From the IMG/VR virus record IMGVR_UViG_3300046819_000361: DNA of 64,000 nucleotides. The stretch is one strand, 5' to 3'. Under the pieces are notes generated by a model that saw only the letters and a program-made list of their open reading frames with translations, ran no database searches and was not told the origin of the DNA. Shown in pieces: positions 570 through 57,638 of the stretch. Each line of letters starts with the position of its first letter. Within the stretch, counting starts at the first letter, position 1. Both the position numbers and the translations under genes were made by a program. Source of the DNA: a virus (lineage: Duplodnaviria > Caudoviricetes).

Positions 570-623
570 CAGTGATTTGGGGTTATGTAATAATAACCCC
601 ATCTTAACGTGATGGAGCAGAAA

Positions 624-830
624 ATGAGTGAATTAAAAGAATATCAAGTAGTATGGCAAAATCAACCGCATTGCAATTATCCACGCAGAGTTGATTTTGT
701 AATGGCTGATAGTGAAGCCAATGCACGTAACGTGGTTACCGATCATATTAGACGAACTACTGGTCTGGTGATGACAACCATTCATAGTGTAGCATTATAT
801 GAAAAACCTACTGTTGGGTATGTAAAGTAG
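624..830 (+). CDS. hypothetical early protein
   Basis: ORF 609..830; start moved to ATG 624 after the GGAGCAG RBS. Confidence 0.7.
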   Translation: MSELKEYQVVWQNQPHCNYPRRVDFVMADSEANARNVVTDHIRRTTGLVMTTIHSVALYEKPTVGYVK

Positions 831-890
831 TTGACACTAGTTTGGGGTTATGTAATAATAGCCCCATCTTAACGTGATGGAGCAATCATA

Positions 891-1277
891 ATGATTATTA
901 AAACCACCGAATTGAGTGGGCTGGCGCTGGACTATGCTGTTGCCATGTGTGAATATCCACATCTGGTATACGGAGACACTATTGGATTGCACCATGCCTC
1001 GCACCAGCTTACTATCCCTGAATTTAAAGTGCCAGATTGTTTTTACAATCCATCAGTTAATTGGTCAGTGGGTGGTGTTATCGTTGAACGGGAACGTATC
1101 ACATTAGATGCACGGGAATCAGATTGGCAAGCTAGAATCTGGGATGATAGTATTGTTGATTTTATCGAAGTTGGCAAACGTGGTCCATACTGTAATACTG
1201 CATTAATAGCGGCTATGCGCTGTTATGTTACAAGTAAATTGGGTAATGAAGTTGAAATTCCTGATGAATTAGTTTGA
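891..1277 (+). CDS. phage NinX/DUF2591-like protein
   Basis: Motifs ELSGLALDYAVA, YNPSVNWSVGGVIVERERI, ALIAAMRCYVTSKLG..VEIPDEL. Confidence 0.7.
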   Translation: MIIKTTELSGLALDYAVAMCEYPHLVYGDTIGLHHASHQLTIPEFKVPDCFYNPSVNWSVGGVIVERERITLDARESDWQARIWDDSIVDFIEVGKRGPYCNTALIAAMRCYVTSKLGNEVEIPDELV

Positions 1278-1333
1278 CACCAGTTTGGGGTTATGTAATA
1301 ATAGTCCCATCTTAACACAGCGGAGCAAATGAA

Positions 1334-1561
1334 ATGACTGTAAGATTAGTAATTAGTATAGAATGCGGATCGGTTCAAGCGGTATATACCAACAACAAAG
1401 CTATCAAGGTTGATGTTGCAATCGTTGATTATGATTTTGAAGATGGTGATCTGGATGAAATTAAAACTGATGATTGTGGCAATGAGTACATTGGTAGACT
1501 TGAAACTACCTGCGAAGCGCAACCCTATGTAAATGAAGTATTTGAAAAACTATTAGCATAG
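1334..1561 (+). CDS. hypothetical early protein
   Basis: ORF preceded by module with GGAGCAAAT RBS. Confidence 0.7.
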   Translation: MTVRLVISIECGSVQAVYTNNKAIKVDVAIVDYDFEDGDLDEIKTDDCGNEYIGRLETTCEAQPYVNEVFEKLLA

Positions 1562-1619
1562 TTGACATTTAGTAAGAACCTAGTATAATAACCCAATATT
1601 AACACAGCGGAGCAAGGCG

Positions 1620-1880
1620 ATGATTGAAAGACAAATTGAGTTTAAAGAGTTATTGGAAATTTTAAATCAAGCTGAGGCTATTCAGTTCGATGGTTCATTG
1701 GTTTACCCAGCGGTATATGAAGATAAGTTTGAGGTCAGCCCATTAGATGATGATGAATCATTAATGATAGAAGCGGATGACATTGAAAATCTTTATATCA
1801 ATGATTACGGTAACATCGAATTTGAAATGGGTGATGATGTTTATATGATTTCAGTATTGGTTCGTAAAGAATTAGTTTGA
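1620..1880 (+). CDS. acidic hypothetical early protein
   Basis: ORF after TTGACA-16-TATAAT and GGAGCA RBS; D/E-rich. Confidence 0.7.
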   Translation: MIERQIEFKELLEILNQAEAIQFDGSLVYPAVYEDKFEVSPLDDDESLMIEADDIENLYINDYGNIEFEMGDDVYMISVLVRKELV

Positions 1881-2003
1881 CATTATTCTGGGGTTATGTA
1901 ATAATAATCCCATCTTTTAACTGGCCAACTAGGATGCGAGATGCATAAAATTAGAGATTCTACCGTAAATTAAACATAACCCCCAGTGCATAGAGGATTA
2001 AAG

Positions 2004-2033
2004 AAGATGGTAGCGATTCACTACCATCTTTTC
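2004..2033 (+). terminator. intrinsic terminator-like hairpin
   Basis: AAGATGGTAG-cgattca-CTACCATCTT followed by TT. Confidence 0.6.
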
Positions 2034-2114
2034 GAAAAAAGTAGTTGACACGATCAACCGGAGTGGTATAATGACCGCTCATTAACACACACTTAAACGG
2101 AAAAGGAAATAATT

Positions 2115-2303
2115 ATGTTAGTATTATCAAGAAAAGTTGGCGAAACTATTGTTATTGGTGATGATGTAACTGTAACGGTATTGGCGATCAATGGTGGACA
2201 AATTAAATTTGGTATTGCGGCACCGAAGGATGTATCGGTGCATAGACAGGAAATATATGAAAAGATTCAACGTGAAGGCGATTTGAGAGCAGAAAAGGTC
2301 TAG
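2115..2303 (+). CDS. csrA: carbon storage regulator CsrA/RsmA homologue
   Basis: [52 protein letters not shown] is a canonical CsrA sequence. Confidence 0.95.
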
Positions 2304-2361
2304 TTGACAAATCATTTCAGAGCCATTATTATGATGGCTCTATCAATTCATGGAGCGTATC

Positions 2362-2565
2362 ATGTCATTAACAAAAAAGCAATATCTGAGAGTTCACGGT
2401 GAAAAATGTCCACATTGTGAGAGTTTTAATTTAGAGGCTGGTCATACTGCCTTTGATGGATTTATTTTAACACAAGCGATCTATTGTAATGATTGTCATG
2501 CTGAATGGGATGATGAGTATGAAACAAAATTAAAAGGTTATGATAACCTAGAGGTTAAAGAATAA
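2362..2565 (+). CDS. small zinc-ribbon protein
   Basis: CPHC...CNDC; start moved to the ATG after GGAGCG. Confidence 0.65.
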   Translation: MSLTKKQYLRVHGEKCPHCESFNLEAGHTAFDGFILTQAIYCNDCHAEWDDEYETKLKGYDNLEVKE

Positions 2566-2729
2566 TGGCGATTTATAAGCGTGTAGCGTGGAATGTGATT
2601 GAAAATGGTATTGTTAGGGATACTGTATTCTTTCCAGCGAGTTTTGATGAGAAATCAATCAAGCGTAGTTTGATTTTGAATTATGGATACAAAGGGAATT
2701 TCACAGTAGTTAAAAAATAATAATTTGAG

Positions 2730-2966
2730 GTGTATATGGAGATACTGCAAATAGATGAAACCGAATTAGAAGATTCAGAGGTTATCATGGAAACTAAAGA
2801 TAATGATGTAATTAAGAAGGTTTTTTGGGAAGTTTATCTTGACAACAAGTTGGTTGATACTGTATTATATGACAGTCAATTAACAGATAAACAGGTAAGA
2901 TGTCGATTGATTACGATTGATGGTTATCCATCAGATATTACAGTTTCGTTATTGGAGGTTGCATGA
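2730..2966 (+). CDS. hypothetical protein
   Basis: 78-aa ORF, co-oriented with the early array. Confidence 0.55.
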   Translation: MYMEILQIDETELEDSEVIMETKDNDVIKKVFWEVYLDNKLVDTVLYDSQLTDKQVRCRLITIDGYPSDITVSLLEVA

Positions 2967-3195
2967 TTGTGTATTCCATGATAGTATTATTCGTTATTGG
3001 TTTTTTGATTGGTCAATATTTCAGGGGGTAATATGTTTCAAGTCTATATTAATGGCACTACCAGTTTATTTCCATTTTTAAAGATGGCGAAAGCATTTGC
3101 AAAAGCATCAGGTGTTTGGTATTATATAGCTGATGGGTTTGAAATCATTTGGACCCAAGATGATGACATTATGGAAGTATTGAAGGCTGACAACT

Positions 3196-3936
3196 TCAAA
3201 TAAGTTTATTGCTCTTTTTAAGATTGTCTATAGCCCACAGTGGTTGGAAATTTGTATAATGATTGAGTCGGATAAGGTCAGCTTCGTCAATTGCTGATGA
3301 CACTGGAATGATATGGTCTAAATGCCATTCAGCCCGATTTTCCCAAGACATACCCGATGCAAATTGTGCCTCAATATGAAGTTTGAAATCTTCATATGAA
3401 CATCCTAATATCTCGTGGGTTTTAGATTTTTTTGAATACCCGTTATTACGGAATGAACTACCAATTCGTGATCTTAAAGTTTTTCGTAGTTTAAATAATG
3501 GATCGGTTGAACAACGTACGGATTCTTTTTCAGATATGGTTTTACGATTTAGTTTAACACGTTGTCTTACTTTTTCTTTATTATTAGCATACCATACATT
3601 TGATTTATTACGGTAATGTTCTGAATTTAATTGACGATATTCTTTATCTCGAATAGATGTACACGATTTGCAGATTGATTTGAATCCATCTTTAGAATAG
3701 CTAGATTTATGAAAAGTATCGGTGGGCAGTACGTTATCACATTTTACACAATGCTTATATCCTACTTGTATTATAGATTCGCTTCTGTTATACTTTACAT
3801 CGTTATAGCGTCTATCACAGTTTTTACACATTGATCTAACACCATGTTTACCATATTTGTTTTTACTAAATTGGTCAATTGCTAAACTCTGATTACATTT
3901 TTTACAATGCTTGTGAATTGGTTGATAAATATCCAT
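3196..3936 (-). CDS. HNH homing endonuclease with N-terminal CxxC zinc-finger repeats
   Basis: WHLDHIIPV...NHYTNFQPLWAIDNLKKSN HNH core; two CxxC...CxxC units. Confidence 0.9.
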   Translation of the reverse strand: MDIYQPIHKHCKKCNQSLAIDQFSKNKYGKHGVRSMCKNCDRRYNDVKYNRSESIIQVGYKHCVKCDNVLPTDTFHKSSYSKDGFKSICKSCTSIRDKEYRQLNSEHYRNKSNVWYANNKEKVRQRVKLNRKTISEKESVRCSTDPLFKLRKTLRSRIGSSFRNNGYSKKSKTHEILGCSYEDFKLHIEAQFASGMSWENRAEWHLDHIIPVSSAIDEADLIRLNHYTNFQPLWAIDNLKKSNKLI

Positions 3937-4009
3937 GCTGATAGTTCCTTATAAACTGTTAGAGTAGTTGGGACTGTCAATCCGCGAACTACTTTTTATT
4001 TAGCTTTTT

Positions 4010-4231
4010 ATGAATGACAAACAAAAAACATTTCAATCTGATGCTGAGTTAATGCAGGCATTACTAGATGGTCAAGAATTACAATCAGTATATAACAACG
4101 GGTTTATTAAGTTGGATACTAATGGTAATTTGATATTTATTAAAAAACATTGGCAATATATAAATCGTCGAGATTGGCTAATAAATAAGCCGGAGGATGA
4201 TGAAGGTGGAGCGACCGAGAATAAAGATTGA
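4010..4231 (+). CDS. hypothetical protein
   Basis: 73-aa ORF whose TGA stop overlaps TTGACA. Confidence 0.55.
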   Translation: MNDKQKTFQSDAELMQALLDGQELQSVYNNGFIKLDTNGNLIFIKKHWQYINRRDWLINKPEDDEGGATENKD

Positions 4232-4535
4232 CAAAGGTATCTGGATCTGCGAAGATATTGAAGGTAATACAGGAAAAGGCAGAACACCACGAGAAGCGTG
4301 GTATGAATATAAAATAAAAATTGTTGACAAGATAATGGAGCTGGTGTATAATAATGAAACATTTAGTTGAAGGCATGGCGGTAGTATTGTTATTGGGCAT
4401 ATGTGTAGTATTATATGCAGAGCGCCAGCGAAGACTACCAATGCCAGATAAGCATACGGTGGAAGTTGAGCAGGTTGAAGATAAGCAACCGCCTATGTAC
4501 ATAATGCAACCAGTAAGATCAAAATAGGAATAACC

Positions 4536-4745
4536 ATGACCAACGTACCAGAAGATTCAATGTTAAGACGACATTATTTAACCGAGTTAAGAAACAAACA
4601 AACTGCCAATTTCGATGCCTTTATTAGTGCGACTAAAACGGTATTAGAGCCGGAGAGTGAAGTACATTATTATCCATTTTGGAGTAATGCAGTATTATTA
4701 CCTTTGATTGGTTTTGTATTCATGATGTGTGTAGTATTCCTATGA
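4536..4745 (+). CDS. small membrane protein
   Basis: AGGA RBS; hydrophobic C-terminus. Confidence 0.6.
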   Translation: MTNVPEDSMLRRHYLTELRNKQTANFDAFISATKTVLEPESEVHYYPFWSNAVLLPLIGFVFMMCVVFL

Positions 4746-4958
4746 AACAATGGCATAATGGATTATTAGAAGATATATTAATGGTTATTTCAGCATTGAT
4801 GCCATTAGTAATGACTACAGGATTAGTTTGGTTGCTTTATCTTGTATTACAATGAAAGAGTTCTTTAACAATTTGGGAATATCGATCATACTTACATTAG
4901 TAACGGTATTAGTAGTATCATTGCTTTATGCTCTTATATTTAAGACTTGAGGATTCTA

Positions 4959-5312
4959 ATGGATGATCAATTAGAAAAAAGAAAACAAGAAATCATGCAA
5001 GCGTATGAAGCAAGTAATGATAAAGCGGCATTTGAAGCGGCAATCCATGAAATTGGTGATTTGTCAAGGAAAATGACTGAAATAGTCAAAACTGCTCGAA
5101 AAAGAATGATTGACAAAGGATTATTGGAAGCCACTGATGAAGATGCAGGAATTAACATGGAAACACAACTTAAAGAAAAAATCGGTGATACTGTCAATGG
5201 TGAATCTATAACAAGCATTCAGCAAGATGAATATAACAACTGGGTTGACATCCATAATTCAGCTATAAGATTGAATGAATTACTAGACAAATTGAAAGTA
5301 ACACCAAAATGA
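4959..5312 (+). CDS. hypothetical protein
   Basis: GAGGA RBS before ATG 4959; helical composition. Confidence 0.65.
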   Translation: MDDQLEKRKQEIMQAYEASNDKAAFEAAIHEIGDLSRKMTEIVKTARKRMIDKGLLEATDEDAGINMETQLKEKIGDTVNGESITSIQQDEYNNWVDIHNSAIRLNELLDKLKVTPK

Positions 5313-5587
5313 AAATTTCTGAAATATTAGACGCTGAAAATAGCATCGATGATATGCTTGATTCGATAAAGTTTTCCTCATTGCCGACTATCGATAAATT
5401 TATCGATAATATATTAGGATTTACTAATAATTTTAATGTACCAGTCGATGTATTTAATGATGAATTAATTCAAGAAATGTTAGATGAGGCAACTCATCTA
5501 AAATCGGTATTAGAAAAAGAATTTGATGATGGTTCTAGGTGGATTGTAAAGATAAATGCTGTAATTGCATATCTATCTGGTAATTAA
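5309..5587 (+). CDS. hypothetical protein with MKIxEI N-terminus
   Basis: ATGA overlap with upstream gene; starts MKISEILD. Confidence 0.6.
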   Translation: MKISEILDAENSIDDMLDSIKFSSLPTIDKFIDNILGFTNNFNVPVDVFNDELIQEMLDEATHLKSVLEKEFDDGSRWIVKINAVIAYLSGN

Positions 5588-5624
5588 ACTTGATAAGTAA
5601 GAAAATTGTAGTATAATGTAATTC

Positions 5625-5712
5625 ATCATGATAAGCCTCTTAACAATGCTCAAACCGATCATGATTAAAAAACCCTATCATGCCTCTTGACAATGCACAA
5701 ACTGATAGGGTT
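5625..5712 (+). ncRNA. candidate two-hairpin small RNA with near-identical 21-nt loop sequences
   Basis: Downstream of TTGATA-16-TATAAT (5590-5617); loop sequences GCCTCTTAACAATGCTCAAAC and GCCTCTTGACAATGCACAAAC are closed by different stems. Confidence 0.45.
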
Positions 5713-5778
5713 AAAATAAAGATTGACAATGTAGTAAAATGTAGTATAATAAATAACATATAAATTAGAGTGTTTTGT

Positions 5779-5852
5779 GGATCTATAATTTAAACGGAAA
5801 AAATACTCGACTCATAATCGATGAGATTTCGGATCATACCCGAATGGATCCA
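5779..5852 (+). tRNA. tRNA(CAU)-like element, Ile2/Met type, atypical
   Basis: Acceptor GGATCTA/TGGATCC, D-arm ATTT/AAAT with GG, anticodon arm TCGA-CTCATAA-TCGA, T-arm TTCGG-ATCATAC-CCGAA; no CCA; promoter TTGACA-16-TATAAT at 5723-5750. Confidence 0.65.
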
Positions 5853-5865
5853 CAAAACACTTTAA

Positions 5866-6023
5866 AATCAACAACTTACGAAAAATTGCCCTTCCTACGT
5901 GAATAGAATGGGCAATGATACTGCAAAAACAATTTCATGCAACACTTTTTTAGTTAAGTTATTGATTTATAAGGAAAAAGTGATTTAAGTGAATTCATTT
6001 TCCTTACATGTAAGTCATTGATT
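5866..6023. promoter_or_regulatory. three IHF-consensus sites (WATCAANNNNTTR)
   Basis: AATCAACAACTTA 5866-5878 (+); AATCAATAACTTA 5955-5967 (-); AATCAATGACTTA 6011-6023 (-). Confidence 0.5.
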
Positions 6024-6036
6024 TTTATAGAGTTTT

Positions 6037-6801
6037 TTATCTAGTAATTCTTGATTGAATGAGTTTATCATACAATGGATGATTTAACGAATCTTCTGTT
6101 ATTGTATCACTTTTGATGATATTATCAATAGCCCATAATGGTCTTAAATTAGTATAATGATTTAACATTATTATTTCATGTTCCGATTGAGCAAACGCAA
6201 TTGGTATAATGTGGTCAATATGCCATTCACCATTAGTAGACCATGTCATGCCTTCTAAAAACTGCTTTTCAATATGTGTTTTAAACTCATCATAACTACA
6301 ACCTAATATCTCATAAGTTATAGATGTCTTTTTATATCCATTTCTAGTTATTGAACTCTTAATAAGAACTCTTATTCTTTTTCTTATTTGATATAACGTA
6401 TCAGTCAACATTCTTTCTTTATGACGAAGTGAGCGCTGTTTATTATACATATCTGTATTAGCTAATCTATATTGTTTTATCTTGTCTTTATTGGCAATAT
6501 AGTGTTCTTTTTTGTATTCTGCAATTTTGTCTTTATTGGCAATATAGTGTTCTTTTTTGTATTCTGCAATTTTGTTTTTATTAGATTGGTAATAAAGTTT
6601 ACTGTTGTCTTTATTAGTTTTATAATACAATTTACATGTTTCTTTTCTTTTTGAATGATTGGCTAAAACGTATTCTTTTGAACATGATTTGCATTGGTAT
6701 TTGTAACCATCTTTAGTATTTTTATCTTTATAAAAATTTTCTATTGACTTTGTAGTGTTGCATTTGTTACAATGCTTCTGATGTATTGGATAAATACCCA
6801 T
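6037..6801 (-). CDS. HNH homing endonuclease
   Basis: WHIDHIIPI...NHYTNLRPLWAIDNIIKSD; N-terminal CxxC; internal KIAEYKKEHYIAN duplication; paralog of 3196..3936. Confidence 0.9.
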   Translation of the reverse strand: MGIYPIHQKHCNKCNTTKSIENFYKDKNTKDGYKYQCKSCSKEYVLANHSKRKETCKLYYKTNKDNSKLYYQSNKNKIAEYKKEHYIANKDKIAEYKKEHYIANKDKIKQYRLANTDMYNKQRSLRHKERMLTDTLYQIRKRIRVLIKSSITRNGYKKTSITYEILGCSYDEFKTHIEKQFLEGMTWSTNGEWHIDHIIPIAFAQSEHEIIMLNHYTNLRPLWAIDNIIKSDTITEDSLNHPLYDKLIQSRITR

Positions 6802-6964
6802 GTGATGACCTCCTAGTCGTTACTGCCAATGGGTATTCCACTACCGCGATTGGCTTTTTTTGTGCTTTGTATTTATCTTTATGCTTGACAATAGTATGAA
6901 TTATTGATACTATACAACTCTTAAAAAATATTATTTTAATAGGCAACTGTAAAGGGAACTTTGA

Positions 6965-7756
6965 ATGAAAGATATAGAAACTGATGATCAAATAATTGAA
7001 CGACTACGAGTGAGATTTGAATGTCTCGAAGATATGACACGAGCAGTAAAAGGTGGTAAGGTCAGATCAATGATAGTATCTGGTAGTCCAGGTGTTGGCA
7101 AATCATTTGGTATTGAAAAAGTATTAGGGTATCATGATTTATTTGCAACTATTGCGAACGATCAATCATTGAAAAAATATGAAATCGTAAAAGGTGCAAT
7201 GTCACCATTAGGATTATATGTTAAATTACATCAATTCAAAAATGACAAAAATGTTCTAGTAATTGATGATTGTGATAATATCTATAGCGATGAACAATCA
7301 TTAAATTTATTAAAAACGTGTTTGGATACTGGAAAGAAACGAGTAGTAAGCTGGAATTATGATAGCTATAAATTGAAAGACGAAGGTGTACCAAATTCGT
7401 TTGAATTTAATGGCGGTATCATATTCATTACTAATGTTGATTTTGATCACGTTAAAAGTAGAAAGATAAAAAGCCATTTAAAAGCATTGGAAAGCAGATG
7501 TCATTTTATCAACTTAACTTGTCATTCCAATAGAGAAAAGTTATTGAGAATTAGACAAATTGTTAATGATGGGATGTTAGATGGTCATGGCATAGATAAT
7601 GAAAAAAAGCTTGACGTAGTTGATTTTATATGCGATAATCATACTGCATTACGAGAATTATCATTAAGAACTGTTATTAAAGCTGCTGATTTGGCTAGTT
7701 CTTTTCCAGATCGATGGAAGGACGTAGCTAAAATAACATTAATGAAAAGTCGTTAA
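6965..7756 (+). CDS. P-loop (AAA+-like) ATPase
   Basis: Walker A GSPGVGKS, Walker B VLVIDDCD, ALESR arginine-finger-like motif; own promoter TTGACA-17-TACTAT at 6885-6913. Confidence 0.8.
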   Translation: MKDIETDDQIIERLRVRFECLEDMTRAVKGGKVRSMIVSGSPGVGKSFGIEKVLGYHDLFATIANDQSLKKYEIVKGAMSPLGLYVKLHQFKNDKNVLVIDDCDNIYSDEQSLNLLKTCLDTGKKRVVSWNYDSYKLKDEGVPNSFEFNGGIIFITNVDFDHVKSRKIKSHLKALESRCHFINLTCHSNREKLLRIRQIVNDGMLDGHGIDNEKKLDVVDFICDNHTALRELSLRTVIKAADLASSFPDRWKDVAKITLMKSR

Positions 7757-7762
7757 AGATTC

Positions 7763-7955
7763 GCCAAATATTACCCATGCTCCGGTAATATTTGGCAATA
7801 CCCCTGCTCCTGACGCAACTGCTCCTGCGATCAGTTGAGCAACCCTAGGCATTCAATATTATATATCATTTGCTCCGGTAATTAATATTGAATCGCTACT
7901 ACCCCTCAACCCCTATTAGTATATCATTTGCTCCGGTATGCTAATAGGGGTTTTT
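7763..7955 (+). ncRNA. candidate four-hairpin RNA displaying UGCUCC (anti-GGAGCA) loops; last hairpin doubles as terminator
   Basis: Stems 7763-7796, 7805-7841, 7851-7893, 7908-7952 with loops CATGCTCC, ACTGCTCC, ATTTGCTCC, ATTTGCTCC; G-U pairs and terminal U-tract indicate + strand. Confidence 0.75.
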
Positions 7956-8016
7956 CTACTTGACAACCCAGATTGCTAGCTGTATCATGTACACATCATA
8001 ACGCGGAGTATTAAGT

Positions 8017-8247
8017 ATGTTAACATTTAATCTAAATGGCAATATCTTGGAAGTCATCGAAACTACTATGACATTCCATCAAGACTTGAAATCATATTGG
8101 TATTATGATCTAGTGAGCTGGCGCAAATCAAGCACTGGTAGACAAGGTGCGATGATCGACCGCGATATTGAGCCTTGGCAGATTGAATGGATTAAAAAAC
8201 ATTATTATTCAAAAGTCGGGTTGACATCAGATTTGGGTGCTGTATAA
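8017..8247 (+). CDS. hypothetical early protein
   Basis: Module promoter at 7960, GGAGTA RBS. Confidence 0.65.
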   Translation: MLTFNLNGNILEVIETTMTFHQDLKSYWYYDLVSWRKSSTGRQGAMIDRDIEPWQIEWIKKHYYSKVGLTSDLGAV

Positions 8248-8274
8248 TACAACCATCTTAAGAAGGAGCGAAGT

Positions 8275-8451
8275 ATGAACACTTACACAGTTATCTTATC
8301 TTATCACAATGGCAAACGTTCGTTTGTTGATAAGATTTTTAAAAACATCACGGCTGATAACCTTATTCAAGCTGGTGAATTGGCATTAGCCAATTGGAAT
8401 AAACCGGATGCAGTTATCAATATGTGCTGGCTCAACTGGAGTAAAGCATGA
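8275..8451 (+). CDS. small early protein (not in ORF track)
   Basis: 58 aa MNTYTVILSYHNGKRSF...; promoter at 8221, AGGAGCG RBS. Confidence 0.6.
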   Translation: MNTYTVILSYHNGKRSFVDKIFKNITADNLIQAGELALANWNKPDAVINMCWLNWSKA

Positions 8452-8651
8452 CATACCAACAACCAGCATTAGGTACATTAAATGCACGGTTAACCCCAGC
8501 AGATAAACCTACTGTTATCGTTAAAATGTTTAAGTTCGATAGCATTAGACAGGAAGCCTACTGGGTTACACAATACGTTAAACAGTTCAAGACCATTGAA
8601 CAAGCCAATAATTATATAAATCGAGTGATGGAGCAAAAAAATGATTTATAA
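8448..8651 (+). CDS. hypothetical early protein
   Basis: ATGA overlap with upstream ORF; GGAG RBS. Confidence 0.6.
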   Translation: MTYQQPALGTLNARLTPADKPTVIVKMFKFDSIRQEAYWVTQYVKQFKTIEQANNYINRVMEQKNDL

Positions 8652-8817
8652 AGACTTATTAAACCAACTTAACCAAATGTCGCAAGAAGACTTAAATAAA
8701 CCTGTGACTGTTCTTTTAGTTGAGGCTGGAGAGTTTTTGGGTGCATGGGGTGATCTTGTATATTCAGATGAATCTGACACATTAGAAGTCGGCACACCCT
8801 ATTTAATGATTGATTAA
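8641..8817 (+). CDS. small early protein (not in ORF track)
   Basis: 58 aa MIYKDLLNQLNQMSQEDLNKPVTV...; GGAGCAAA RBS. Confidence 0.6.
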   Translation: MIYKDLLNQLNQMSQEDLNKPVTVLLVEAGEFLGAWGDLVYSDESDTLEVGTPYLMID

Positions 8818-8828
8818 AGGAATAAAAC

Positions 8829-9074
8829 ATGAAACAGGAATATAGAGATTTATTAGCAAGAATTCAACGTCCAGCAATCAAAGCTGAATTAATCGCATAT
8901 GCTAGACAAGTAATCGAGAATGATGGTAACCTAACAGACGATTGGTTTTCATTCAATGATTGGATTGACATTAACGTATTTGATAACATCAATGCTACTG
9001 CTTACCCAGTAATATTAGGTGAACCATCAACAGAAAAAGGTATAAAGTTAATTGTTGACAATATAGACCAATAA
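8829..9074 (+). CDS. hypothetical early protein
   Basis: AAGGA RBS, 81 aa. Confidence 0.65.
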   Translation: MKQEYRDLLARIQRPAIKAELIAYARQVIENDGNLTDDWFSFNDWIDINVFDNINATAYPVILGEPSTEKGIKLIVDNIDQ

Positions 9075-9108
9075 CAGTATTATACAGTTTTTATCTGGAG
9101 CATAACCT

Positions 9109-9417
9109 ATGAAATACGAAACAATTAAAACCAAAATGAAAATTCATATTGATAATCAATTTGAACAACACGGCTTTGATCTTTCAACCCATGCTATTAG
9201 ATTATTTCTTGATAGAAAACCATTAGATTACTACAAAAAGAAAAAATACGCTAAAGAAGCGTGTTTTGAAATCATTGACAATTGGGATGTTCGCGCGGTA
9301 CCATCACTGTTCACAATGTTTCCAACCGTTTACCCATCAATGGTAGGAAAACCATTAGTCATCACCTATGATGAAAATGGTGAATGGGTAGTAGAAAAAG
9401 CAAAACAAACAGCTTGA
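9109..9417 (+). CDS. hypothetical early protein
   Basis: Promoter at 9055, GGAGCAT RBS. Confidence 0.7.
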   Translation: MKYETIKTKMKIHIDNQFEQHGFDLSTHAIRLFLDRKPLDYYKKKKYAKEACFEIIDNWDVRAVPSLFTMFPTVYPSMVGKPLVITYDENGEWVVEKAKQTA

Positions 9418-9473
9418 CATTGATTTGGGGTTATGTAATAATAGCCCCATCTTAACTCGATGGAGCAAAAATC

Positions 9474-9833
9474 ATGAAAGTATTCGTATATTTCAACCTA
9501 CACAAAAAATTGTTTAGTATCAAAGCAATGGAAGGTGAAAACAAAGGTAAGGTGATCGGTCACTCACCAGTGGTATTATTGGATGATGTAACCTTTAAAG
9601 TATCCGAAGCAGGTAGACAGCGTGTTATCAGAGAACGCAAAAAGAATGTTCATGCAGGTGTAATGGGACACCTTAACGCACAAGGCATAAGATTAGTAAT
9701 TGCGACCCGTGATCTAACAACCAAAGTAACTTATAACCCATACAAATATCAATCATTCGTTGAGGTTGAAACATCTGAGCCGGTATTGACTGCTAACAAT
9801 GCATTGTTAGTGAACAAACGAATTTATATTTGA
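9474..9833 (+). CDS. conserved phage hypothetical protein
   Basis: VYFNLHKKLFS...VSEAGRQRV..ERKKNVHAGV.G...VTYNPYK pattern resembles a widespread phage family. Confidence 0.75.
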   Translation: MKVFVYFNLHKKLFSIKAMEGENKGKVIGHSPVVLLDDVTFKVSEAGRQRVIRERKKNVHAGVMGHLNAQGIRLVIATRDLTTKVTYNPYKYQSFVEVETSEPVLTANNALLVNKRIYI

Positions 9834-9893
9834 TTGACATCATGCTGGGGTTATGTAATAATAACCCCATCTTAACACAGCGGAGCAAACGCA

Positions 9894-10103
9894 ATGACAC
9901 CAGAACAAACAAAACGTTTATTACAAGGGGCATCATTCCTATCGATTGAAGGTGAATTTTATCGAATAGACCTTTGTGATGAAACCGAATTTTATTACAC
10001 TGATGAAGACAGTGGTGAACAATATTGTGATACCTATGATAAGATTGATTTGTATAACCCAGAAGTTGAGATATACAAACTTGAAAAAATAAACATTAAG
10101 TAA
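9894..10103 (+). CDS. acidic hypothetical early protein
   Basis: Module promoter plus GGAGCAAA RBS. Confidence 0.7.
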   Translation: MTPEQTKRLLQGASFLSIEGEFYRIDLCDETEFYYTDEDSGEQYCDTYDKIDLYNPEVEIYKLEKINIK

Positions 10104-10162
10104 TTGACACCAGTTTGGGGTTATGTAATAATAACCCCATCTTAACATGATGGAGCAAAGCA

Positions 10163-10711
10163 ATGAACAAATACCATGTCAACCTGCAAGAAAAATTAGA
10201 TGATGAGTTTTTAGATAAAATGTGGTTTGAATGTGATGCTGATAATGCAGAACACGCCAAAGAACAAGCCACCAATGCTTATCCTGATTGCAAAATCAAT
10301 GCAGTTCAAACCAGTATCACATGGACAGAATTCGAGGAAAGATTCAAACCAATCAAGAACCATTTAGATGATAATGCCTCATTCGATGGTTATATGTTTG
10401 AAACATTTGATTCTGAGCTTGATGCAGTCAAACAGGCATATAGTGTCAATCGTGATACTGTTTGGACGGTTATGTGTGATTCAGGTAATGTCGATGTTTC
10501 TAGTGGGTTTTACTTTTGTAATCGTCTAGGTTACATTATCACAGAGATACCAGCAGATTGCACCATTGATGTTATCAATGACGATTATAACGAAATTACA
10601 GAGTTCTACGATTACGAATGTCCATCATGTAATAGTTACATCAATGGTGACCCAAAAGTTGGTGATTCATGCTCGTGTGGCTTTGTATTCACAATGGAAG
10701 ATTACGATTAG
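10163..10711 (+). CDS. hypothetical early protein with C-terminal Zn ribbon
   Basis: Module promoter plus RBS; CPSC...CSCG. Confidence 0.75.
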   Translation: MNKYHVNLQEKLDDEFLDKMWFECDADNAEHAKEQATNAYPDCKINAVQTSITWTEFEERFKPIKNHLDDNASFDGYMFETFDSELDAVKQAYSVNRDTVWTVMCDSGNVDVSSGFYFCNRLGYIITEIPADCTIDVINDDYNEITEFYDYECPSCNSYINGDPKVGDSCSCGFVFTMEDYD

Positions 10712-10774
10712 TAGTTGACAGCATTTTGGGGTTATGTAATAATAACCCCATCTTAACACAGCGGAGAAAATACA

Positions 10775-10912
10775 ATGTCAGAAAAAATGATTGAATATCT
10801 AATTGAATTAGCTAAAAACAACGATGATTCAGAAACACTTGATGACTATGCACAAGGTCAAGTTGATTTAGCTAAACATATCTTGTATGATATGGATATT
10901 GAAGTCGAATAA
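10775..10912 (+). CDS. small early protein (not in ORF track)
   Basis: 45 aa between modules 10715 and 10917; GGAGAA RBS. Confidence 0.55.
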   Translation: MSEKMIEYLIELAKNNDDSETLDDYAQGQVDLAKHILYDMDIEVE

Positions 10913-10976
10913 GCACTTGACAGCATTCTGGGGTTATGTAATAATAGCCCCATCTTAACACACCGGAGCGAACACC

Positions 10977-11141
10977 ATGACACCTATTACAATTGAACAA
11001 AAACGTGATGCAGTTATCAACGACACATTCGATACTTGTTTAAATGATAGTGGTTATTTATTATCAGTTATTCAGGATTTGTACCGTGATAAATCCGATG
11101 AAGAAATCGAACGAGCTTATAACGATGCTTTCGATTTTTAA
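10977..11141 (+). CDS. small early protein (not in ORF track)
   Basis: 54 aa between modules 10917 and 11142. Confidence 0.6.
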   Translation: MTPITIEQKRDAVINDTFDTCLNDSGYLLSVIQDLYRDKSDEEIERAYNDAFDF

Positions 11142-11199
11142 TTGACATAAACAATGGGCTATGAAATAATAACCCCATCTTAACACAACGGAGCAAACC

Positions 11200-11364
11200 A
11201 TGACATCTTACAAAGTAACTTATACCATTGACGTTGATGCTGAAAGTGCATTAGATGCAGCATTGGAAGTTGAAGAATACTTAAAAAACCCATCCAGCAG
11301 ACCTTACTTAACAGTATCATCATCAACTGAAACTGTTGATATTGATTTAGAAGATCTAGTCTAG
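11200..11364 (+). CDS. small early protein (not in ORF track)
   Basis: 54 aa MTSYKVTYTIDVDAESALDAA... between modules 11142 and 11365. Confidence 0.6.
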   Translation: MTSYKVTYTIDVDAESALDAALEVEEYLKNPSSRPYLTVSSSTETVDIDLEDLV

Positions 11365-11426
11365 TTGACAAATCATTAATGAGCCATTATAATGATGGCT
11401 CTTTTCAAACATTCGGAGCAAACGAT

Positions 11427-11972
11427 ATGCCAAATTGGTGTCAAAACACAGTAACATTCACCCACAACGATGCTACACAATTAAACAGATTGGTGGAAGC
11501 TGGTAATTCAGGAAAGCTATTTAATGAGTTCGTACCAGTGCCTAAAGCATTGTTCAAGATCATCAATACCAGACTTGGCGATAAACGCAGATTTAGACGG
11601 TCATTACGCATTACAACCCGTAATGAAAAGAAGTATAGCTATGCTAGTGCTTATTACTTTTGCAAAGCAAATTGGGGTACAAAGTGGGATGCTGATTGCT
11701 TCACGTTATATGATAGCGGTGTAGGTCATGTCAGAGTCGGATTTAATACCGCTAATACACCACCAATTGAATTCTATAATCAAATGGTTGAGCTTGGCTT
11801 TGGTGTCGATGCCTTTTATTATGAAGGTGGCAATTGCTATTGTGGTGAGTATTGTGATGGCTCATACACTGATTACGAATGGGATGACCTAGAATCAGCT
11901 AAAGCTAACATTCCCGACTATATCGATGAAGAATTCGCCATTACCGAGAACATGGAAGAATACGAAGAATAG
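11427..11972 (+). CDS. DUF1281/YubB-like ferredoxin-fold phage protein
   Basis: MPNWCQN start after GGAGCAAA; NWGTKWD, F.TANTPP, YYEGG..YCG motifs. Confidence 0.7.
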   Translation: MPNWCQNTVTFTHNDATQLNRLVEAGNSGKLFNEFVPVPKALFKIINTRLGDKRRFRRSLRITTRNEKKYSYASAYYFCKANWGTKWDADCFTLYDSGVGHVRVGFNTANTPPIEFYNQMVELGFGVDAFYYEGGNCYCGEYCDGSYTDYEWDDLESAKANIPDYIDEEFAITENMEEYEE

Positions 11973-12034
11973 TTGACAATTACATCAAGAGCCATTATAA
12001 TGATGGCTCTTTTAACGCATCTGGAGCAAATCAA

Positions 12035-12235: not shown

Positions 12236-12293
12236 ACTTGATAGGCACATAATGCTAGCTGTATTGTGTGCCATTACTCATGCAGGTAAACAC

Positions 12294-46951: not shown

Positions 46952-46955
46952 ATAA

Positions 46956-47588: not shown

Positions 47589-47601
47589 TTTATTCTCCTT
47601 T

Positions 47602-50964: not shown

Positions 50965-51056
50965 AATATATTCTCCATGAACAATTTCTAAATAATTCTC
51001 TTGATGTATTTAGTTGTTTTGGAGATTTTATTGCTATATCATGGCTAATAATCATA

Positions 51057-52517: not shown

Positions 52518-52593
52518 TTTTAATCTCCTGTTATATTTATCGAATATACCAGATGATTAGATAGATAAATATGTAATAACTAGGAGAGTTCCA

Positions 52594-53985: not shown

Positions 53986-53996
53986 GGAGAGTAATC

Positions 53997-55481
53997 TTGC
54001 AATTTTTTTATGATTCACAAATAAGACGATATATAACGCAGACAATTCGTGTCTTTAGTAATTTCGTAGTCAAATACAGTGATGGTTCATTGCACCGCGT
54101 TCCAGTTTTATATGGTGATGCTGACCGCCAAGTCGCAAATATTATGCGTCAAAATTCTGAGAATGCAGTAAACTCAGTCCCAAGAATTAGTATATATGTC
54201 ACAGAATTAAAAATGGATCGAGATAGAATGGCAGATGCCACTTATGTTGGTAAAGTTCATATAAGAGAGCGAGATGAATTTGCTGATGCTTATCAAACTT
54301 CACAAGGTAGAACATATACGGTTGAAAGATTGATGCCAACCCCGTTCAGTTTAAAAATGAAAATAGATATATGGGCATCAAGCACTGATCAAAAATTGCA
54401 AATTTTAGAACAAATATTAGTATTTTTCAACCCTAGCATGGAATTGCAAACATCTGATAATTTTATCGATTGGACTAGTTTAACAGTATTAAATTTAGAT
54501 GATATTACATGGACTAGTAGAACGGTCCCAACCGGAACTAATTTAACTATTGATGTTGCTACAATCACTGTTGATACACCAATATGGATAAGTCCACCAG
54601 TCAAAGTAAAACAGTTAGGTGTTATCACTAATATAATTGCAAATATTCATAAATCAAGCGATGCAAGTCCATATGGATACATTGATGGGTTAGGGGTAGA
54701 CACTACTGGACCAACTATTACTATGTCAGATATTATTACTAATAAACATATCACTATTTCAGAATATAATATTGCAGTTTACGGTAATAATGTTACATTA
54801 CTCGATGAATACACTAATACTGTTCCACCAGAACCTTTTGGTTTACCAGATAATATTCCTAATCCAGTTAGTTGGGTTAAAATTTTGGATGGTTATAATG
54901 GCACTTTTACGCCAGGAGTTAGTAGAATTTATTTACGTCAACCAGATGGATCAGAAATAGTCGGGACGGTTTCAATCGATGATATTACTCCATCCATATT
55001 ATTGGTAGAATGGGACCAAGATACATTGAACACAAATACTGGGATTGATAGCCAAGGTATTTTTGATTACAATCCTGGTTATAATTCAGGCGGAAATAGA
55101 TCTGCTAGTCCGGGCACATTTGACGCAATTGTAAATCCGTTATCGTTTAATCCAAAACGACCAAACAATGAATCTGAAGATCAATTAATCGCTATAGGCA
55201 CTCGATATTTAATAATTGAAGACATTGGTAATCGAATTAATACTGATGGACCTGATGGATGGAAGTCGTCTAATAACGAAGATTTTATTGCATTAGCTAA
55301 CGATATAATAGAATGGAATGGCACAGAATGGAATATTGTTTTTAATTCAATAAAAGAATCTGAATCAATGGTGTGGCAAACAAATATATACACAGGAATA
55401 CAATATTTATGGAATGGTATTTCTTGGAGTAAAAGCTTTGACGGCACATATAGGTCAGGATCATGGAAACTAATATTATAA
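53997..55481 (+). CDS. tail sheath stabilizer/terminator (gp15-like)
   Basis: FFYD.QIRRY, VP..YG, PR.S, QILEQI..FFNP. Confidence 0.8.
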   Translation: MQFFYDSQIRRYITQTIRVFSNFVVKYSDGSLHRVPVLYGDADRQVANIMRQNSENAVNSVPRISIYVTELKMDRDRMADATYVGKVHIRERDEFADAYQTSQGRTYTVERLMPTPFSLKMKIDIWASSTDQKLQILEQILVFFNPSMELQTSDNFIDWTSLTVLNLDDITWTSRTVPTGTNLTIDVATITVDTPIWISPPVKVKQLGVITNIIANIHKSSDASPYGYIDGLGVDTTGPTITMSDIITNKHITISEYNIAVYGNNVTLLDEYTNTVPPEPFGLPDNIPNPVSWVKILDGYNGTFTPGVSRIYLRQPDGSEIVGTVSIDDITPSILLVEWDQDTLNTNTGIDSQGIFDYNPGYNSGGNRSASPGTFDAIVNPLSFNPKRPNNESEDQLIAIGTRYLIIEDIGNRINTDGPDGWKSSNNEDFIALANDIIEWNGTEWNIVFNSIKESESMVWQTNIYTGIQYLWNGISWSKSFDGTYRSGSWKLIL

Positions 55482-55912
55482 AAGACAAAATAATATGCAG
55501 TGGCGCACTGTTTTACGCAAAATCAACCCACAGATTTCTGCTAATTCAGAAAGCAACTGGTAAGCATCAAGGATCGTGGGGATTAGTTGGAGGAACTAAT
55601 TTAATCGGTGAAAATCCTTGGCAAGGATTGCAAAGAGAAGTAATAGAGGAAATTGGATGTTTTCCAGATGTATTAAAAACTATACCATTGGAGACGTTTG
55701 TTTCAAATGACAAAGTATTTAATTTTCATACTTATTTATGCGTGGTCGAGAATGAATTTATCCCACTACTCAGTTCAGAGCATATAGCATGGGCATGGTG
55801 TTCTATAGATTACGCACCAAAACCATTGCATCAAGGTTTAAAGAATAGTTTCTCTAATAAAATTATGAGAACTAAACTTCAAACCATTTTTGATATAATA
55901 GATTTAATATAA
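55463..55912 (+). CDS. NUDIX hydrolase
   Basis: GG....GE......REV.EEIG Nudix box. Confidence 0.85.
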
Positions 55913-57061
55913 TAAGTGGTTTGATGAACTAACTGGGTATTGTTTTTTCAAAAAATCTAAATTAGTTCTTGAATCGTTAGGTTCATACCACCCATTACCA
56001 GTATGAATATCAAGCACCGATTTGAAAAATTCTTCATACATAACCGCTACCCTATCGAGCGAAAAATTATTAATTGCCCATTCTCTACAATCATATGGGC
56101 TTATTTTGTCAATATTTTTCGCAGCCCATGTAAAATGTTCAAACGTTTTACATCTATATCCGGTAACACCATGAATGTTGTTCTCTGTGAATGCACCCCA
56201 ATCAGTCGTAATGGTCGGTGTACCAGATAATAAGCATTCAATTTGTACACCACCAAATGGTTCATTGTACATACTTGCAACAAATGCTCCCTTTGCTTTG
56301 GACATTAATTTTCTGCGAGTTTCAACATCAGCATATCCGATGACTTCAACATGTGGCGGAATCTCTGTATATCCACAATCTTGTAAGGAATTTTGTCCAG
56401 CTACTAATAATTTAGCACCGATTGCTTCAGTAACTTGGATGGCAACATGAATTCCTTTCCCCTCATATACTCTTCCCAAAAATAGGAAATAATCATCTTT
56501 TTCTGCAGAAAAAGTAAAATCATCTGGATCGAAATAATTAGGAATTACAGTATCATACCAGCCTTGCTTACATGTACCAACTGACTCTAATCCATAGTAT
56601 GCATGGTAAATTGCATATGATTCAAATATTTTGTATCTTGCCCAATGTCCACCTGCATATCCAATACCAGGTTCAACACAAATTAAATCTTGGTGTGCAT
56701 CACAAATTGGTCTGGTGCCTGATCCCCAGAAAGGTAGAATAATATCTAATGGTTGTTTTCTGATTGCAATTTCACGAATTGCATTTTTATAGAATGTTTG
56801 ATATGCATGATCACCAGTATCAAACTTAAAAAAATGTTTACGCCAATCATGATCACCATACGAAATTTTCCAATCTTCGGTCGAGAGTACATTAACATGT
56901 TCTGTACACTCTAAATCAGATTCTTCATGCCCATAATGAATAACAGTATGTCCTCTTTCTATCATCATTTTACTAAATTTTACTACTTTTTGGGTGTACG
57001 CACATGCGACGTACTCTTTACTTGACACTGTATGTGGCAAGCCTAATATATGAAATCTCAT
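55904..57061 (-). CDS. GT-B glycosyltransferase (GT4-like)
   Basis: FLGR...[11 protein letters not shown] (EX7E); start at MRFH after GGAGA. Confidence 0.88.
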
Positions 57062-57062
57062 T

Positions 57063-57638
57063 TTATCTCCATTTTGGACCGTCAAACCAACAGGCTAAAC
57101 TATACCGGATGCCTCTGGTTACTTGAGTTGCTTGATGTAATATAAAGGAAGGAAAAAATACGACAGAACCTTGATTTCTAATATCATCTGGACTGGGATG
57201 GGCACCAACGTCAATGAATTCTAGATTACCCCCATCATACTCTCCCGGGTCAGAAAGTTGCACAACTGCTGTTATTTTTCTATGATATTCTGGATCATTA
57301 TTTAACCAAAAAACATCATGATGTTTTTTATATTCACCCAAATATGAAGAGTCATATTCAGCTAATTGAATATAATCCATTTTTGATATGTGTACTTTAA
57401 ACCATTGATCATTTGCTTCAACGGCCATTTTCCACATTGCATCAAAAAGAAATGCAAAATCAGGATTTGTTTTTTGTATAAAACGAACTTTAGATCTTCG
57501 CCAGTTATTATCAACATGGCCATTATTTAACCCGATTATTGCATCTTGGACAGGCAATTGCAACCCAAGTTCTAATATTTTAGCACATGTTTCTCGATCA
57601 AAATATCGATTATAATAACACCATTCACCTTTCATCAT
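57063..57638 (-). CDS. 2OG-Fe(II) oxygenase (prolyl-hydroxylase/PKHD-like)
   Basis: HHD (HxD), RKIT.VVQLSD..EY.GG, H....VTRG.RYSL..W. Confidence 0.88.

Follow-up and report, generated by a model that had tools for sequence, protein, structure and literature searches.

A candidate anti-RBS small RNA encoded in the early region of an uncultured giant (jumbo) lake phage rather probably reads a short extension of the early ribosome sites, hereafter the tag, and so addresses the early genes as a class. The evidence comes from a window, i.e., the whole stretch of DNA that was analyzed, of 64,000 nt (IMGVR_UViG_3300046819_000361) and from its relatives. Judged by sequence, the most likely outcome is that the small RNA binds and silences the early class. 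In the proposed mechanism the early ribosome site has two parts. The first would be a minimal 4-nt SD core, GGAG, whose flanks would be unable to extend 16S pairing with the standard CCUCC anti-SD of the 16S rRNA tail. The second would be the flanks together with the core, which form an 8-13 nt complement to the RNA loops, (C)CGGAGCAAA vs UUUGCUCCG(G). The RNA, lying in the same early block and exposing the anti-tag in the loops of three to four of its hairpins, would base-pair with the leaders of tagged mRNAs, out-compete the ribosome and stop initiation, perhaps also setting off mRNA decay, and the early class would be turned down as a single unit. The RNA would not match a gene whose site is generic (GGAGA, AAGGA or none), and the spread and uniformity of the tag would be due partly to its position at the 3' end of mobile promoter cassettes resembling PeSL (promoter-early stem-loop) elements. 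We infer the pairing in the cell, the repressive effect and the timing.

The base after GGAG and its promoter cassettes

Start codons placed in the + strand array (147-18095) numbered 51, and the 47 other genes formed the comparison set. Counted when 3-13 nt ahead of the start codon, GGAGC was found at 30 of the 35 GGAG ribosome sites of the array (about 600-17,700), mostly as GGAGCAAA (16 starts). The remaining early starts have GGAGT (four, with GGAG at 136, 8005, 8438, and 16418), GGAGA (one, at 10763) or no GGAG (16/51, leaving about one third of the array genes without the tag). The other 47 genes comprise eight with GGAGA, two with GGAGG (6801 and dNMP kinase, 51677), one with GGAGC and 36 without GGAG, and most have AAGGA/AGGA or no SD. 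At GGAG sites, C vs. not-C is 30/5 for early genes and 1/10 elsewhere (Fisher p=7e-6), and the early C excess over the 33% C seen after non-RBS GGAG in the window has a binomial p=1e-10, with the early counts not independent since the sites sit within repeated cassettes.

The specific sequence statements of the first-pass annotation all hold on recount, and the GGAGU exceptions that it listed are present, although it missed the GGAGT at 8438. It had described two RBS dialects, GGAGC for early genes and GGAGA for replication and late genes. The early dialect stands (30/35 vs. 1/11), however, the second does not: GGAGA occurs at 8/47 genes, and the frequency of A after GGAG in non-early genes does not differ significantly from the 44% A of their own spacers (p=0.07). 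GGAGA is a generic SD followed by an A-rich spacer and not a second tag or a class of its own. PHROGs matches bear out the gene names of the GGAGA-site genes (Table 1).

Tabulating the base after GGAG by gene class, as the same annotation had suggested, also gave C in early arrays and A around the terminase when relatives were included. Five early arrays from the window's own clade have C 139, T 24, A 15, and G 6 (p=4e-33), and ribosome sites around the terminase of 58 relatives have A 69, G 30, T 18, and C 13. In a 278-kb relative the GGAGC sites are clustered beside the small-RNA gene, and A is dominant in the rest. The non-C exceptions are themselves skewed, U vs. A+G being 24:21 in early arrays and 18:99 at late sites (p=2e-6), and U, the commonest exception, would keep loop pairing through G-U wobble.

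GGAGCAAA forms the 3' end of repeated PeSL-like cassettes (sigma70 promoter, hairpin over the -10 box, leader), therefore shared descent contributes to the uniform tag, as had been anticipated. Their order is TTGACA, 17 nt, a -10 box within a hairpin, the leader ...cttaaCAnnC GGAGCAAA, 3-8 nt, and ATG. In 23 of the 32 cassette candidates in the array, the -10 box is covered by a hairpin that scores z<-2 (median z=-4.9). The hairpins fall into six unrelated stem families, with stems that include GGGGTTAT/ATAACCCC, and the C after GGAG carries 1.5 bits in cassette leaders, making it the top leader position apart from GGAG itself. A Pfam family is missing for most of 30 scanned proteins from the array and the adjacent + strand.

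It could be argued that shared descent is all there is, with the cassettes being recent recombining copies and the complementary loops a by-product or coincidence. The tag does end the repeated cassettes, and recombination of PeSL elements in the interval from the -10 box to the SD has been described (PMC2839356). Gene order also differs among the window and its relatives G002 and G005, as cassette-mediated shuffling predicts; ~24/50 genes are in common with G002, one block having moved, and 13/50 with G005, in scrambled order. However, the same leader is kept across six stem families of unrelated sequence, the loops are invariant despite replaced stems, loops and RBS have switched jointly in separate clades, and a match of 8-11 nt is too short for leader-loop gene conversion. 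The tag is also found at some ribosome sites without a promoter cassette (8641, 12702, and 13402 in the window; 2954 and 6496 in the related locus L304), therefore it is not merely a cassette passenger. We find descent alone improbable.

The candidate small RNA and its predicted targets

The RNA begins directly after the stop codon of an ATPase-like gene, a position that it holds in every relative examined. Its fold is stable relative to shuffled sequences (MFE -74.9 kcal/mol, z=-9.9 in the window; z=-7.5 in G002), and UGCUCC is invariant between these two RNAs whereas the stems differ. Across 16 RNA homologues, 32/41 GCUCC motifs are unpaired at no fewer than 4/5 bases in predicted folds, with 79% of bases unpaired within the motif vs. 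43% overall. A terminal hairpin and T-run close every inspected homologue; the last hairpin of the RNA was not flagged in a simple terminator scan because its 9-nt loop is above the limit of that scan. No Rfam family, C4 (RF01695) included, matched the RNA, whether the gathering score was applied or E was allowed to reach 5. The linked ATPase gene is encoded by more than 528 contigs, and in PA5oct, the nearest cultured phage with this gene, there is no room for such an RNA.

Table 1. Positions of the array, the candidate RNA, and selected genes and ribosome sites in the window.
Feature	Position	Strand	Comment
Early-gene array	566..17660	+	~50 small genes, own cassette ahead of most
First GGAGCA tag	614..619	+	ahead of ATG at 624
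Phage CsrA homologue	2115..2303	+	PF02599, E=1.5e-26
AAA-ATPase-like gene	6965..7756	+	sigma70-type promoter 6885-6913
Candidate anti-RBS small RNA	7757..7958	+	four hairpins, UUUUU after last
UGCUCC copy 1	7778..7783	+	loop of hairpin 1
UGCUCC copy 2	7805..7810	+	paired inside hairpin 2 (MFE fold)
UGCUCC copy 3	7820..7825	+	loop of hairpin 2
UGCUCC copy 4	7871..7876	+	loop of hairpin 3; context CAUUUGCUCCGGUA complements UACCGGAGCAAAUG
UGCUCC copy 5	7929..7934	+	terminal hairpin loop; 14-nt context identical to copy 4
Last GGAGCA tag	17479..17484	+	ahead of ATG at 17489
Lone non-early GGAGC (GGAGCU)	22632..22636	-	gene start 22626; longest loop complement at most 6 nt
GGAGA, 80-aa gene 33941-34183	34193..34197	-	
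GGAGA, uvsX	35324..35328	-	start 35319
GGAGA, tail tube gene	47594..47598	-	start 47588
GGAGA, tail sheath gene	50972..50976	-	start 50964
GGAGA, head-tail adaptor gene	52524..52528	-	start 52517
GGAGA, virion structural gene	52583..52587	+	start 52594
GGAGA, sheath-stabiliser-like gene	53986..53990	+	start 53997
GGAGA, glycosyltransferase gene	57066..57070	-	start 57061

A perfect Watson-Crick complement of at least 7 nt to the loops is present at 27/51 early starts vs. 0/47 others. It reaches at least 9 nt at 14 early starts, with a longest of 13 nt, and no more than 6 nt among the 47 others. At the last tag of the array the full match, ACCGGAGCAAA, is perfectly complementary over 11 nt to loops 3 and 4. 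A C-rich motif in hairpin loops and beyond-chance complementarity to several ribosome sites, the features by which anti-SD small RNAs are recognized, are thus both found. When energies were calculated against the whole unfolded RNA the early and other classes were poorly separated, and in loop-only energies the advantage of the cognate RNA was only modest because of G-U pairs.

The RNA would be transcribed, probably as the 3' portion of the early ATPase mRNA. It is seemingly made from an early promoter along with its targets, no TAAATA late-type motif was found upstream of it, and the timing does not look like a simple “late shut-off.”

The ATPase gene of several relatives has the tag at its own ribosome site (GGAGCG in many), and self-control of this gene could be part of the function of the RNA. 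The icaR 3'UTR anti-SD of S. aureus is a comparable cis system, and together with the fixed position of the RNA at the ATPase stop codon this might suggest that the hairpins simply serve the ATPase mRNA as 3' UTR and terminator, acting only in cis on its own ribosome site. We regard this as quite improbable, considering that the loops do not match the ATPase site in the window, AAGGGA, and that the G002 site is GAGCAA. Action in trans is indicated by the numbers, with as many as five loops in one RNA and 20-30 leaders matching them in an array. Additionally, the array of another relative (G003) has a second hairpin pair elsewhere.

Joint change of loops and tag across relatives

The comparison covered 95 related loci having the ATPase gene, with leaders picked by promoter and not by RBS. 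Three loop/early RBS states were found: UGCUCC with GGAGCA, UUCGCUCC with GGAGCGAA, and UGCCCUC with GAGGGCA. The promoter-defined leaders follow the loops, with GGAGCA 74, GGAGCG 24, and GAGGGC 0 at UGCUCC-loop loci, GGAGCG 454, GGAGCA 106, and GAGGGC 0 at CGCUCC-loop loci, and GAGGGC 31, GGAGCA 3, and GGAGCG 1 at GCCCUC-loop loci. In the ATPase tree the UGCUCC and GCCCUC groups (99* and 100*, respectively) are separate clades, therefore at least two matched tag/loop switches have taken place. The step between CGCUCC/GGAGCG and UGCUCC/GGAGCA can pass through G-U wobble. These co-changing states, together with complements of 7 nt or more at early starts only, support at the sequence level the earlier proposal that the tag is read by the UGCUCC loops (7763-7955).

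The matched switches, two or more, are few events. Concerted evolution of cassettes is itself able to make ribosome sites uniform without selection.

If the tag tuned translation by itself, a weak SD of 4 nt within an unstructured leader rich in C and A being suited to early genes, the RNA would have some other job. The leaders are indeed rich in A and C, and with a standard 16S their flanking C residues hold SD-anti-SD pairing to 4 bp; however, the exact complementarity would be left unexplained, as would the fact that even the SD core changes along with the loops, from GGAG to GAGGG, and there seems little chance that this is the answer.

The first-pass annotation had also named CsrA as a reader, and an intact gene for a homologue is indeed located in the array. 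Here phage CsrA, and not the RNA, would read the leaders by binding GGA in ACA..GGAGC and throttle early translation. The csrA leader in the window has no GGAGC and carries two GGA, as in autoregulated csrA, and some leaders fit ANGGA, e.g., AUGGAG and ACGGAG, but most leaders in the window are CCGGA or GCGGA and do not. The homologue turned up in the window's own clade alone (window, G002, G005, and L321) and not in two 72-75% complete relatives that retain the tag and the RNA, which argues against a general reader. CsrA cannot account for loops changing in step with the RBS and is not known to read the base after GGAG. It is very improbable as the reader but may be an extra layer in the window's clade.

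To return to a reading of the tag by the RNA, a further and rather unlikely suggestion is that each tag/anti-tag pair works as a private “code” able to evolve, by which the phage would time or cap its whole early program with one RNA and which competition between related phages would diversify. The loci show at least three of them: GGAGCAA/UUGCUCC, GGAGCGAA/UUCGCUCC, and GAGGGCA/UGCCCUC. The RNA of a resident or co-infecting phage would then silence the early genes of an incoming relative with the same code, and a code change would allow escape. Were the small RNA the reader, a whole temporal class of viral genes would be addressed post-transcriptionally by a short RBS extension with one small RNA reader, and the address would be rewritten together with that reader across lineages of very abundant lake jumbo phages. 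This would be an RNA-based counterpart to the T4 protein regulators RegA and RegB and a natural collection of tag/anti-tag pairs that look orthogonal, and PeSL-like cassettes would spread a regulatory address besides a promoter.

Relation to known systems

Among phage RNAs, the c4 antisense RNA of P1/P7 (RF01695) also has loops complementary to the ribosome-site region and shares a transcription unit with its target, but it belongs to an immunity circuit and acts on one target only, icd-ant. The sponge RNAs CsrB/RsmZ resemble the candidate in being multi-hairpin RNAs with one repeated loop motif, and csrA is nearby here. However, the loops of the sponges carry GGA, whereas 7757-7958 lacks the triplet and its loops carry the complement, UCC; by its sequence the RNA is the mirror image of a CsrA sponge and not a sponge.

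S. aureus RNAIII, other UCCC-loop small RNAs and E. coli CyaR are likewise multi-hairpin RNAs with conserved unpaired C-rich loops, and these pair with the SD regions of related mRNAs so that translation is blocked (Chevalier et al., 2010, PMC2837412), a pairing that is predicted in our case. These bacterial RNAs have few targets, with specificity from further contacts, while the RNA described here is phage-encoded, has 20-30 same-tag targets per array and co-varies with the tag between lineages; there is no sequence relationship.

In T4, early mRNAs are controlled by RegB/S1 and RegA (PMC1702504; reviewed in PMC3014915), and thus are also singled out after transcription via ribosome-site sequence (GGAG and its context). 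T4 relies on protein readers, with an A-rich context for RegB, whereas here a C opens the context and an RNA is the candidate reader. T4 RegB cleaves GGAG in early SD sequences (PMC1702504), and one could envisage a RegB-like nuclease cutting early mRNAs at GGAG with the next base as its specificity. This we find scarcely credible. T4 RegB/S1 sites are A-rich on the 3' side with C almost excluded, the consensus being GGAGAAUAAAA (PMC1702504), which resembles the late sites of this phage, whereas the early leaders have C right after GGAG and lack the 7-nt A-rich, C-excluded stretch. There was no RegB among the 30 scanned window proteins, and no match to Pfam REGB_T4 (PF10715) in five related records, where the control search was likewise silent.

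The cassettes themselves recall the PeSL elements of T4-type phages (Arbiol et al., 2010, PMC2839356; Comeau et al., 2014, PMC4122927). Both have a consensus sigma70 promoter (TTGACA, ~17 nt, TATAAT-like), a stem-loop that covers the -10 box or falls between it and the -35 box, often of the form GGGG...CCCC, and, at the 3' end, the downstream gene's SD and start codon, and both lie ahead of small ORFan genes in a variable region with gene content shuffled between relatives. Terminator/attenuator activity and mini-circle formation are further traits of PeSL elements. The accessible portions of these two papers (PMC2839356, PMC4122927) describe neither a class-specific SD extension nor a complementary RNA. 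The cassettes described here belong not to Tevenvirinae but to a jumbo-phage lineage related to RaK2/PA5oct-type phages, to which the window terminase is 42-50% identical.

Ribosome sites of the window and its relatives

The source of the window is an uncultured jumbo phage. Its terminase is 50% identical to those of PA5oct-like phages and 42% identical to those of RaK2-like phages, a 60-kb contig (G001; IMG/VR 3300042317_001322; 17% complete by CheckV) carries a large terminase 100% identical to it, and a megablast search of GenBank phages with the window gave no match. Every GGAG with a start codon 3-11 nt downstream and an open frame was listed, and 98 hand-placed starts were then tabulated. 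GGAGC, the tag of the plus-strand early genes, precedes 30 of the 51 early-array starts (16 of these 30 as GGAGCAAA); GGAGT precedes four, GGAGA one, and the tag is absent from 16 starts without GGAG, the csrA-to-ATPase block among them. The 47 starts of other genes comprise eight with GGAGA, two with GGAGG, one with GGAGC (the gene at 22626) and 36 without GGAG, and the two groups differ in C vs not-C after GGAG (Fisher p=7e-6). The first-pass annotation had described two ribosome-site dialects, GGAGC in early genes and GGAGA in replication and late genes. Its coordinates and exceptions are correct, save for one overlooked GGAGT at 8438, but GGAGA does not qualify as a dialect of the non-early genes, being found in only 8/47 of them. 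A follows GGAG at 8/11 non-early sites, not significantly above the 44% A of those genes' spacers (p=0.07), and most of these genes have AAGGA/AGGA or a late motif directly adjoining the start codon.

Features of the window and their coordinates
Feature	Position	Strand	Remarks
Early region	1 to ~18,000	+	some 50 small genes
Block with almost no GGAGC leaders	2100-7760		csrA, tRNA, two minus-strand genes, ATPase gene; sigma70-type promoters present
CsrA homologue	2115-2303		PF02599, E=1.5e-26
Genes within the block	3196-3936, 6037-6801	-	
abiF RNA motif (Rfam)	5674-5710	+	43.6 bits (gathering score 37); untagged block of early array
tRNA-Met gene	5779-5853	+	abiF RNA motif ~70 nt upstream
Upstream promoter of candidate RNA	6885-6913		
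AAA-ATPase-like gene (ATPase gene)	6965-7756	+	
Candidate RNA	7757-7958	+	four hairpins and U-run; directly after ATPase stop codon
Further tagged leader	13775-13800	+	CCGGAGCAAAAACAATG; own promoter; heads very short ORF
Near-identical upstream stretches (~74 nt)	20505-20584, 21458-21537		both end in TATAAATA; head a 115-aa gene and the ADP-ribosyltransferase-like gene
ART-PolyVal ADP-ribosyltransferase-like gene	21538-22188		PF18760, E=5e-18
Replication genes	from ~22,000 onward		DnaB-like helicase, primase, helicase, UvsX, SSB
Virion genes	from ~22,000 onward		terminase, tube, sheath, adaptor
Two long collagen-like genes	57690-62184	-	GC 47-54% (window 35%); encode Gly-X-Y repeats

The bias extends beyond the window. 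In the best available proxy genome, a 278-kb related contig (G003; 75% complete), 16/31 GGAGC sites lie at 100-120 kb, adjoining the RNA gene, and A is the prevailing base in the rest of the contig, so GGAGC is not equally frequent in late genes across this genome; these counts are RBS-anchored, simple gene calling having left out many small early genes there. At ribosome sites near the terminase gene in 58 relatives, GGAG is followed by A 69 times, by G 30, by T 18 and by C 13. Within the window, many GGAGC/TGCTCC words that are not ribosome sites stem from the collagen-like genes, and the further tagged leader with its own promoter points to at least one additional micro-gene in the array.

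A candidate RNA complementary to early leaders

The candidate RNA has a predicted fold of -74.9 kcal/mol (z=-9.9 vs shuffles). It holds five copies of UGCUCC within ~190 nt, in four cases inside a loop, vs 13 copies on the rest of the plus strand. Two loops, reading CAUUUGCUCCGGUA, are complementary to UACCGGAGCAAAUG. When duplex energies were computed against the full unfolded RNA, stem sequence inflated them and the classes separated poorly, so loop-only matches were used instead. Perfect complements of at least 7 nt to a loop segment occur at 27/51 early starts and of at least 9 nt at 14 (longest 13), and none longer than 6 nt was found at the 47 other starts of the window. With no late-type promoter or late motif found upstream, the sequence context suggests an early transcript of which this RNA forms the 3' end. 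An Rfam search matched no family, and a 37-codon minus-strand ORF across the region was discounted, as G002, a related contig, shows indels there relative to the window.

Exact 14-mer scans of IMG/VR with leader and loop returned almost only chance matches and one true relative, the same G002 (L007), which has 26 cassettes carrying the window-type leader. The stems of its homologous RNA differ from the window's, and five UGCUCC motifs are retained (fold z=-7.5). As the stems cannot be aligned, a compensatory-pair count on the pairwise MAFFT alignment (35 "broken" pairs) is not meaningful and was replaced by an independent fold per homologue. An IMG/VR search that began with the ATPase protein and continued with an alignment of ATPases yielded more than 528 contigs (the best 80 of at least 528 were listed), and 95 loci were examined. 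Hairpins with a C-rich loop motif, a terminal hairpin and a T-run were present in every homologue read through downstream of the ATPase gene, and the loop motif lies directly 3' of that gene in 95/95 typed loci; in PA5oct the ATPase gene is present and such an RNA is absent. The assumption that the tag is consistently missing from the ATPase gene did not hold, many relatives having GGAGCG there.

The decisive result is the co-variation of loops and early ribosome sites, in which early leaders were selected by promoter only and sites and loops were typed afterwards.

Early leader types by loop class of the locus
Loop class	Loci	GGAGCA	GGAGCG	GAGGGC
UGCUCC	8	74	24	0
CGCUCC (as GAUUCGCUCCCGG)	82	106	454	0
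GCCCUC	5	3	1	31

A typical leader of the CGCUCC class is GGAGCGAAC/U, and in the GCCCUC class the Shine-Dalgarno core itself has shifted to GAGGGCAA, in step with the loops (UGCCCUC). In the ATPase tree, the clade with UGCUCC loops that includes the window (5 rows, support 99-100) and the one with GCCCUC loops (5 rows, support 100) are separate. Loop and ribosome site therefore switched together at least twice, the matched switches being few in number. A CG-to-UA switch can pass via a G-U intermediate. U is the commonest exception to C in early arrays and would still wobble-pair; non-C bases after GGAG there are 24 U vs 21 A+G, against 18 vs 99 at late sites (p=2e-6). Such concerted change of complementary sequences is what direct RNA-RNA pairing would predict, and is predicted neither by cassette drift nor by a protein reader. 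Together with complements of at least 7 nt at early starts only, the co-variation over 95 loci favors the earlier proposal that the UGCUCC loops may read the tag.

In locus L386 (IMG/VR 3300008107_000519), GAGGGC and GGAGC early leaders are mixed, and GCCCUC is the sole loop type in the RNA that follows the ATPase gene; this could be a transitional genome, or a second RNA may be located elsewhere. The early array of G003 contains a second hairpin pair, its loops carrying GAUUCGCUCCC (L328 ~10791-10840; contig 110,791-110,840), 5 kb upstream of the pair after the ATPase gene, so some phages may carry more than one anti-RBS RNA.

Proposed mechanism and other sources of the tag

With a standard 16S tail (CCUCC), CGGAGC would pair over only 4 bp and the RNA loops over 8-13, so the candidate RNA should have the advantage over the ribosome, but only at tagged leaders. 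A stable structured RNA would accumulate while early mRNAs turn over, so that early translation would be capped or shut off with a delay, a timing that we infer. Genes of the almost untagged block would, judging by their leaders, escape it. In its proposed action the candidate RNA resembles RNAIII (PMC2837412) and other anti-SD RNAs with several hairpins, and also phage c4 RNA, but it lies outside both families. Our literature search turned up no published phage RNA with a match to a ribosome-site tag shared by a whole gene class.

CsrA had also been proposed as reader. The window does encode a homologue; however, homologues are limited to its own clade (G002, G005/L317 and L321) and none was found in the related contigs G003 and G004, which argues against CsrA as a general reader. 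The candidate RNA is not a CsrA sponge either, since it lacks the GGA triplet. Another protein that acts on such sites is T4 RegB, which cuts GGAG in early Shine-Dalgarno sequences, its S1-dependent site being GGAGAAUAAAA with C excluded 3' (PMC1702504); a search of five related records with REGB_T4 found no match, the control search being silent too. Late GGAGA sites of the window at 34197, 47598, 50976 and 52528 (minus strand) read GGAGAAUAAA(A), almost exactly this consensus, which in T4 marks early mRNAs (PMC1702504); the pattern here is the reverse. The resemblance is probably a mere A-rich spacer.

Shared descent was the remaining suggestion, and it does contribute. Tagged genes are headed by a cassette of TTGACA, 17 nt, a -10 box in or beside a hairpin loop, and a leader (...cttaaCAnnC-GGAGCAAA-(3-8 nt)-ATG). 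A significant hairpin is present in 23/32 cassette candidates of the window (median z=-4.9), with six unrelated stem families, and outside GGAG the leader is most conserved at the following C (1.5 bits), then the preceding C (1.1) and the next A (1.0). Most arrays among the relatives examined use TTGACA cassettes. According to two published accounts, the promoter-early stem-loop (PeSL) of T4-type phages combines a sigma70 promoter with a stem-loop between -35/-10 or over the -10, often GGGG...CCCC, ends 3' in SD and ATG, is located before ORFans and mediates shuffling (PMC2839356; PMC4122927). The window cassettes share this architecture (PMC2839356; PMC4122927) and are PeSL-like, a known element in a new lineage. 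Gene content and order differ among the window, G002 and G005, as the PeSL shuffling model predicts; thus shared descent and cassette recombination contribute to tag uniformity.

T4-type late motifs (TATAAATA/TAAATA) lie upstream of several virion genes of the window. At many late genes (42692, 40111, 23212, 23459, 20585 and 21538, among others) the motif stands just 4-8 nt before ATG with no SD, a sequence arrangement suggestive of late mRNAs with very short leaders or none.
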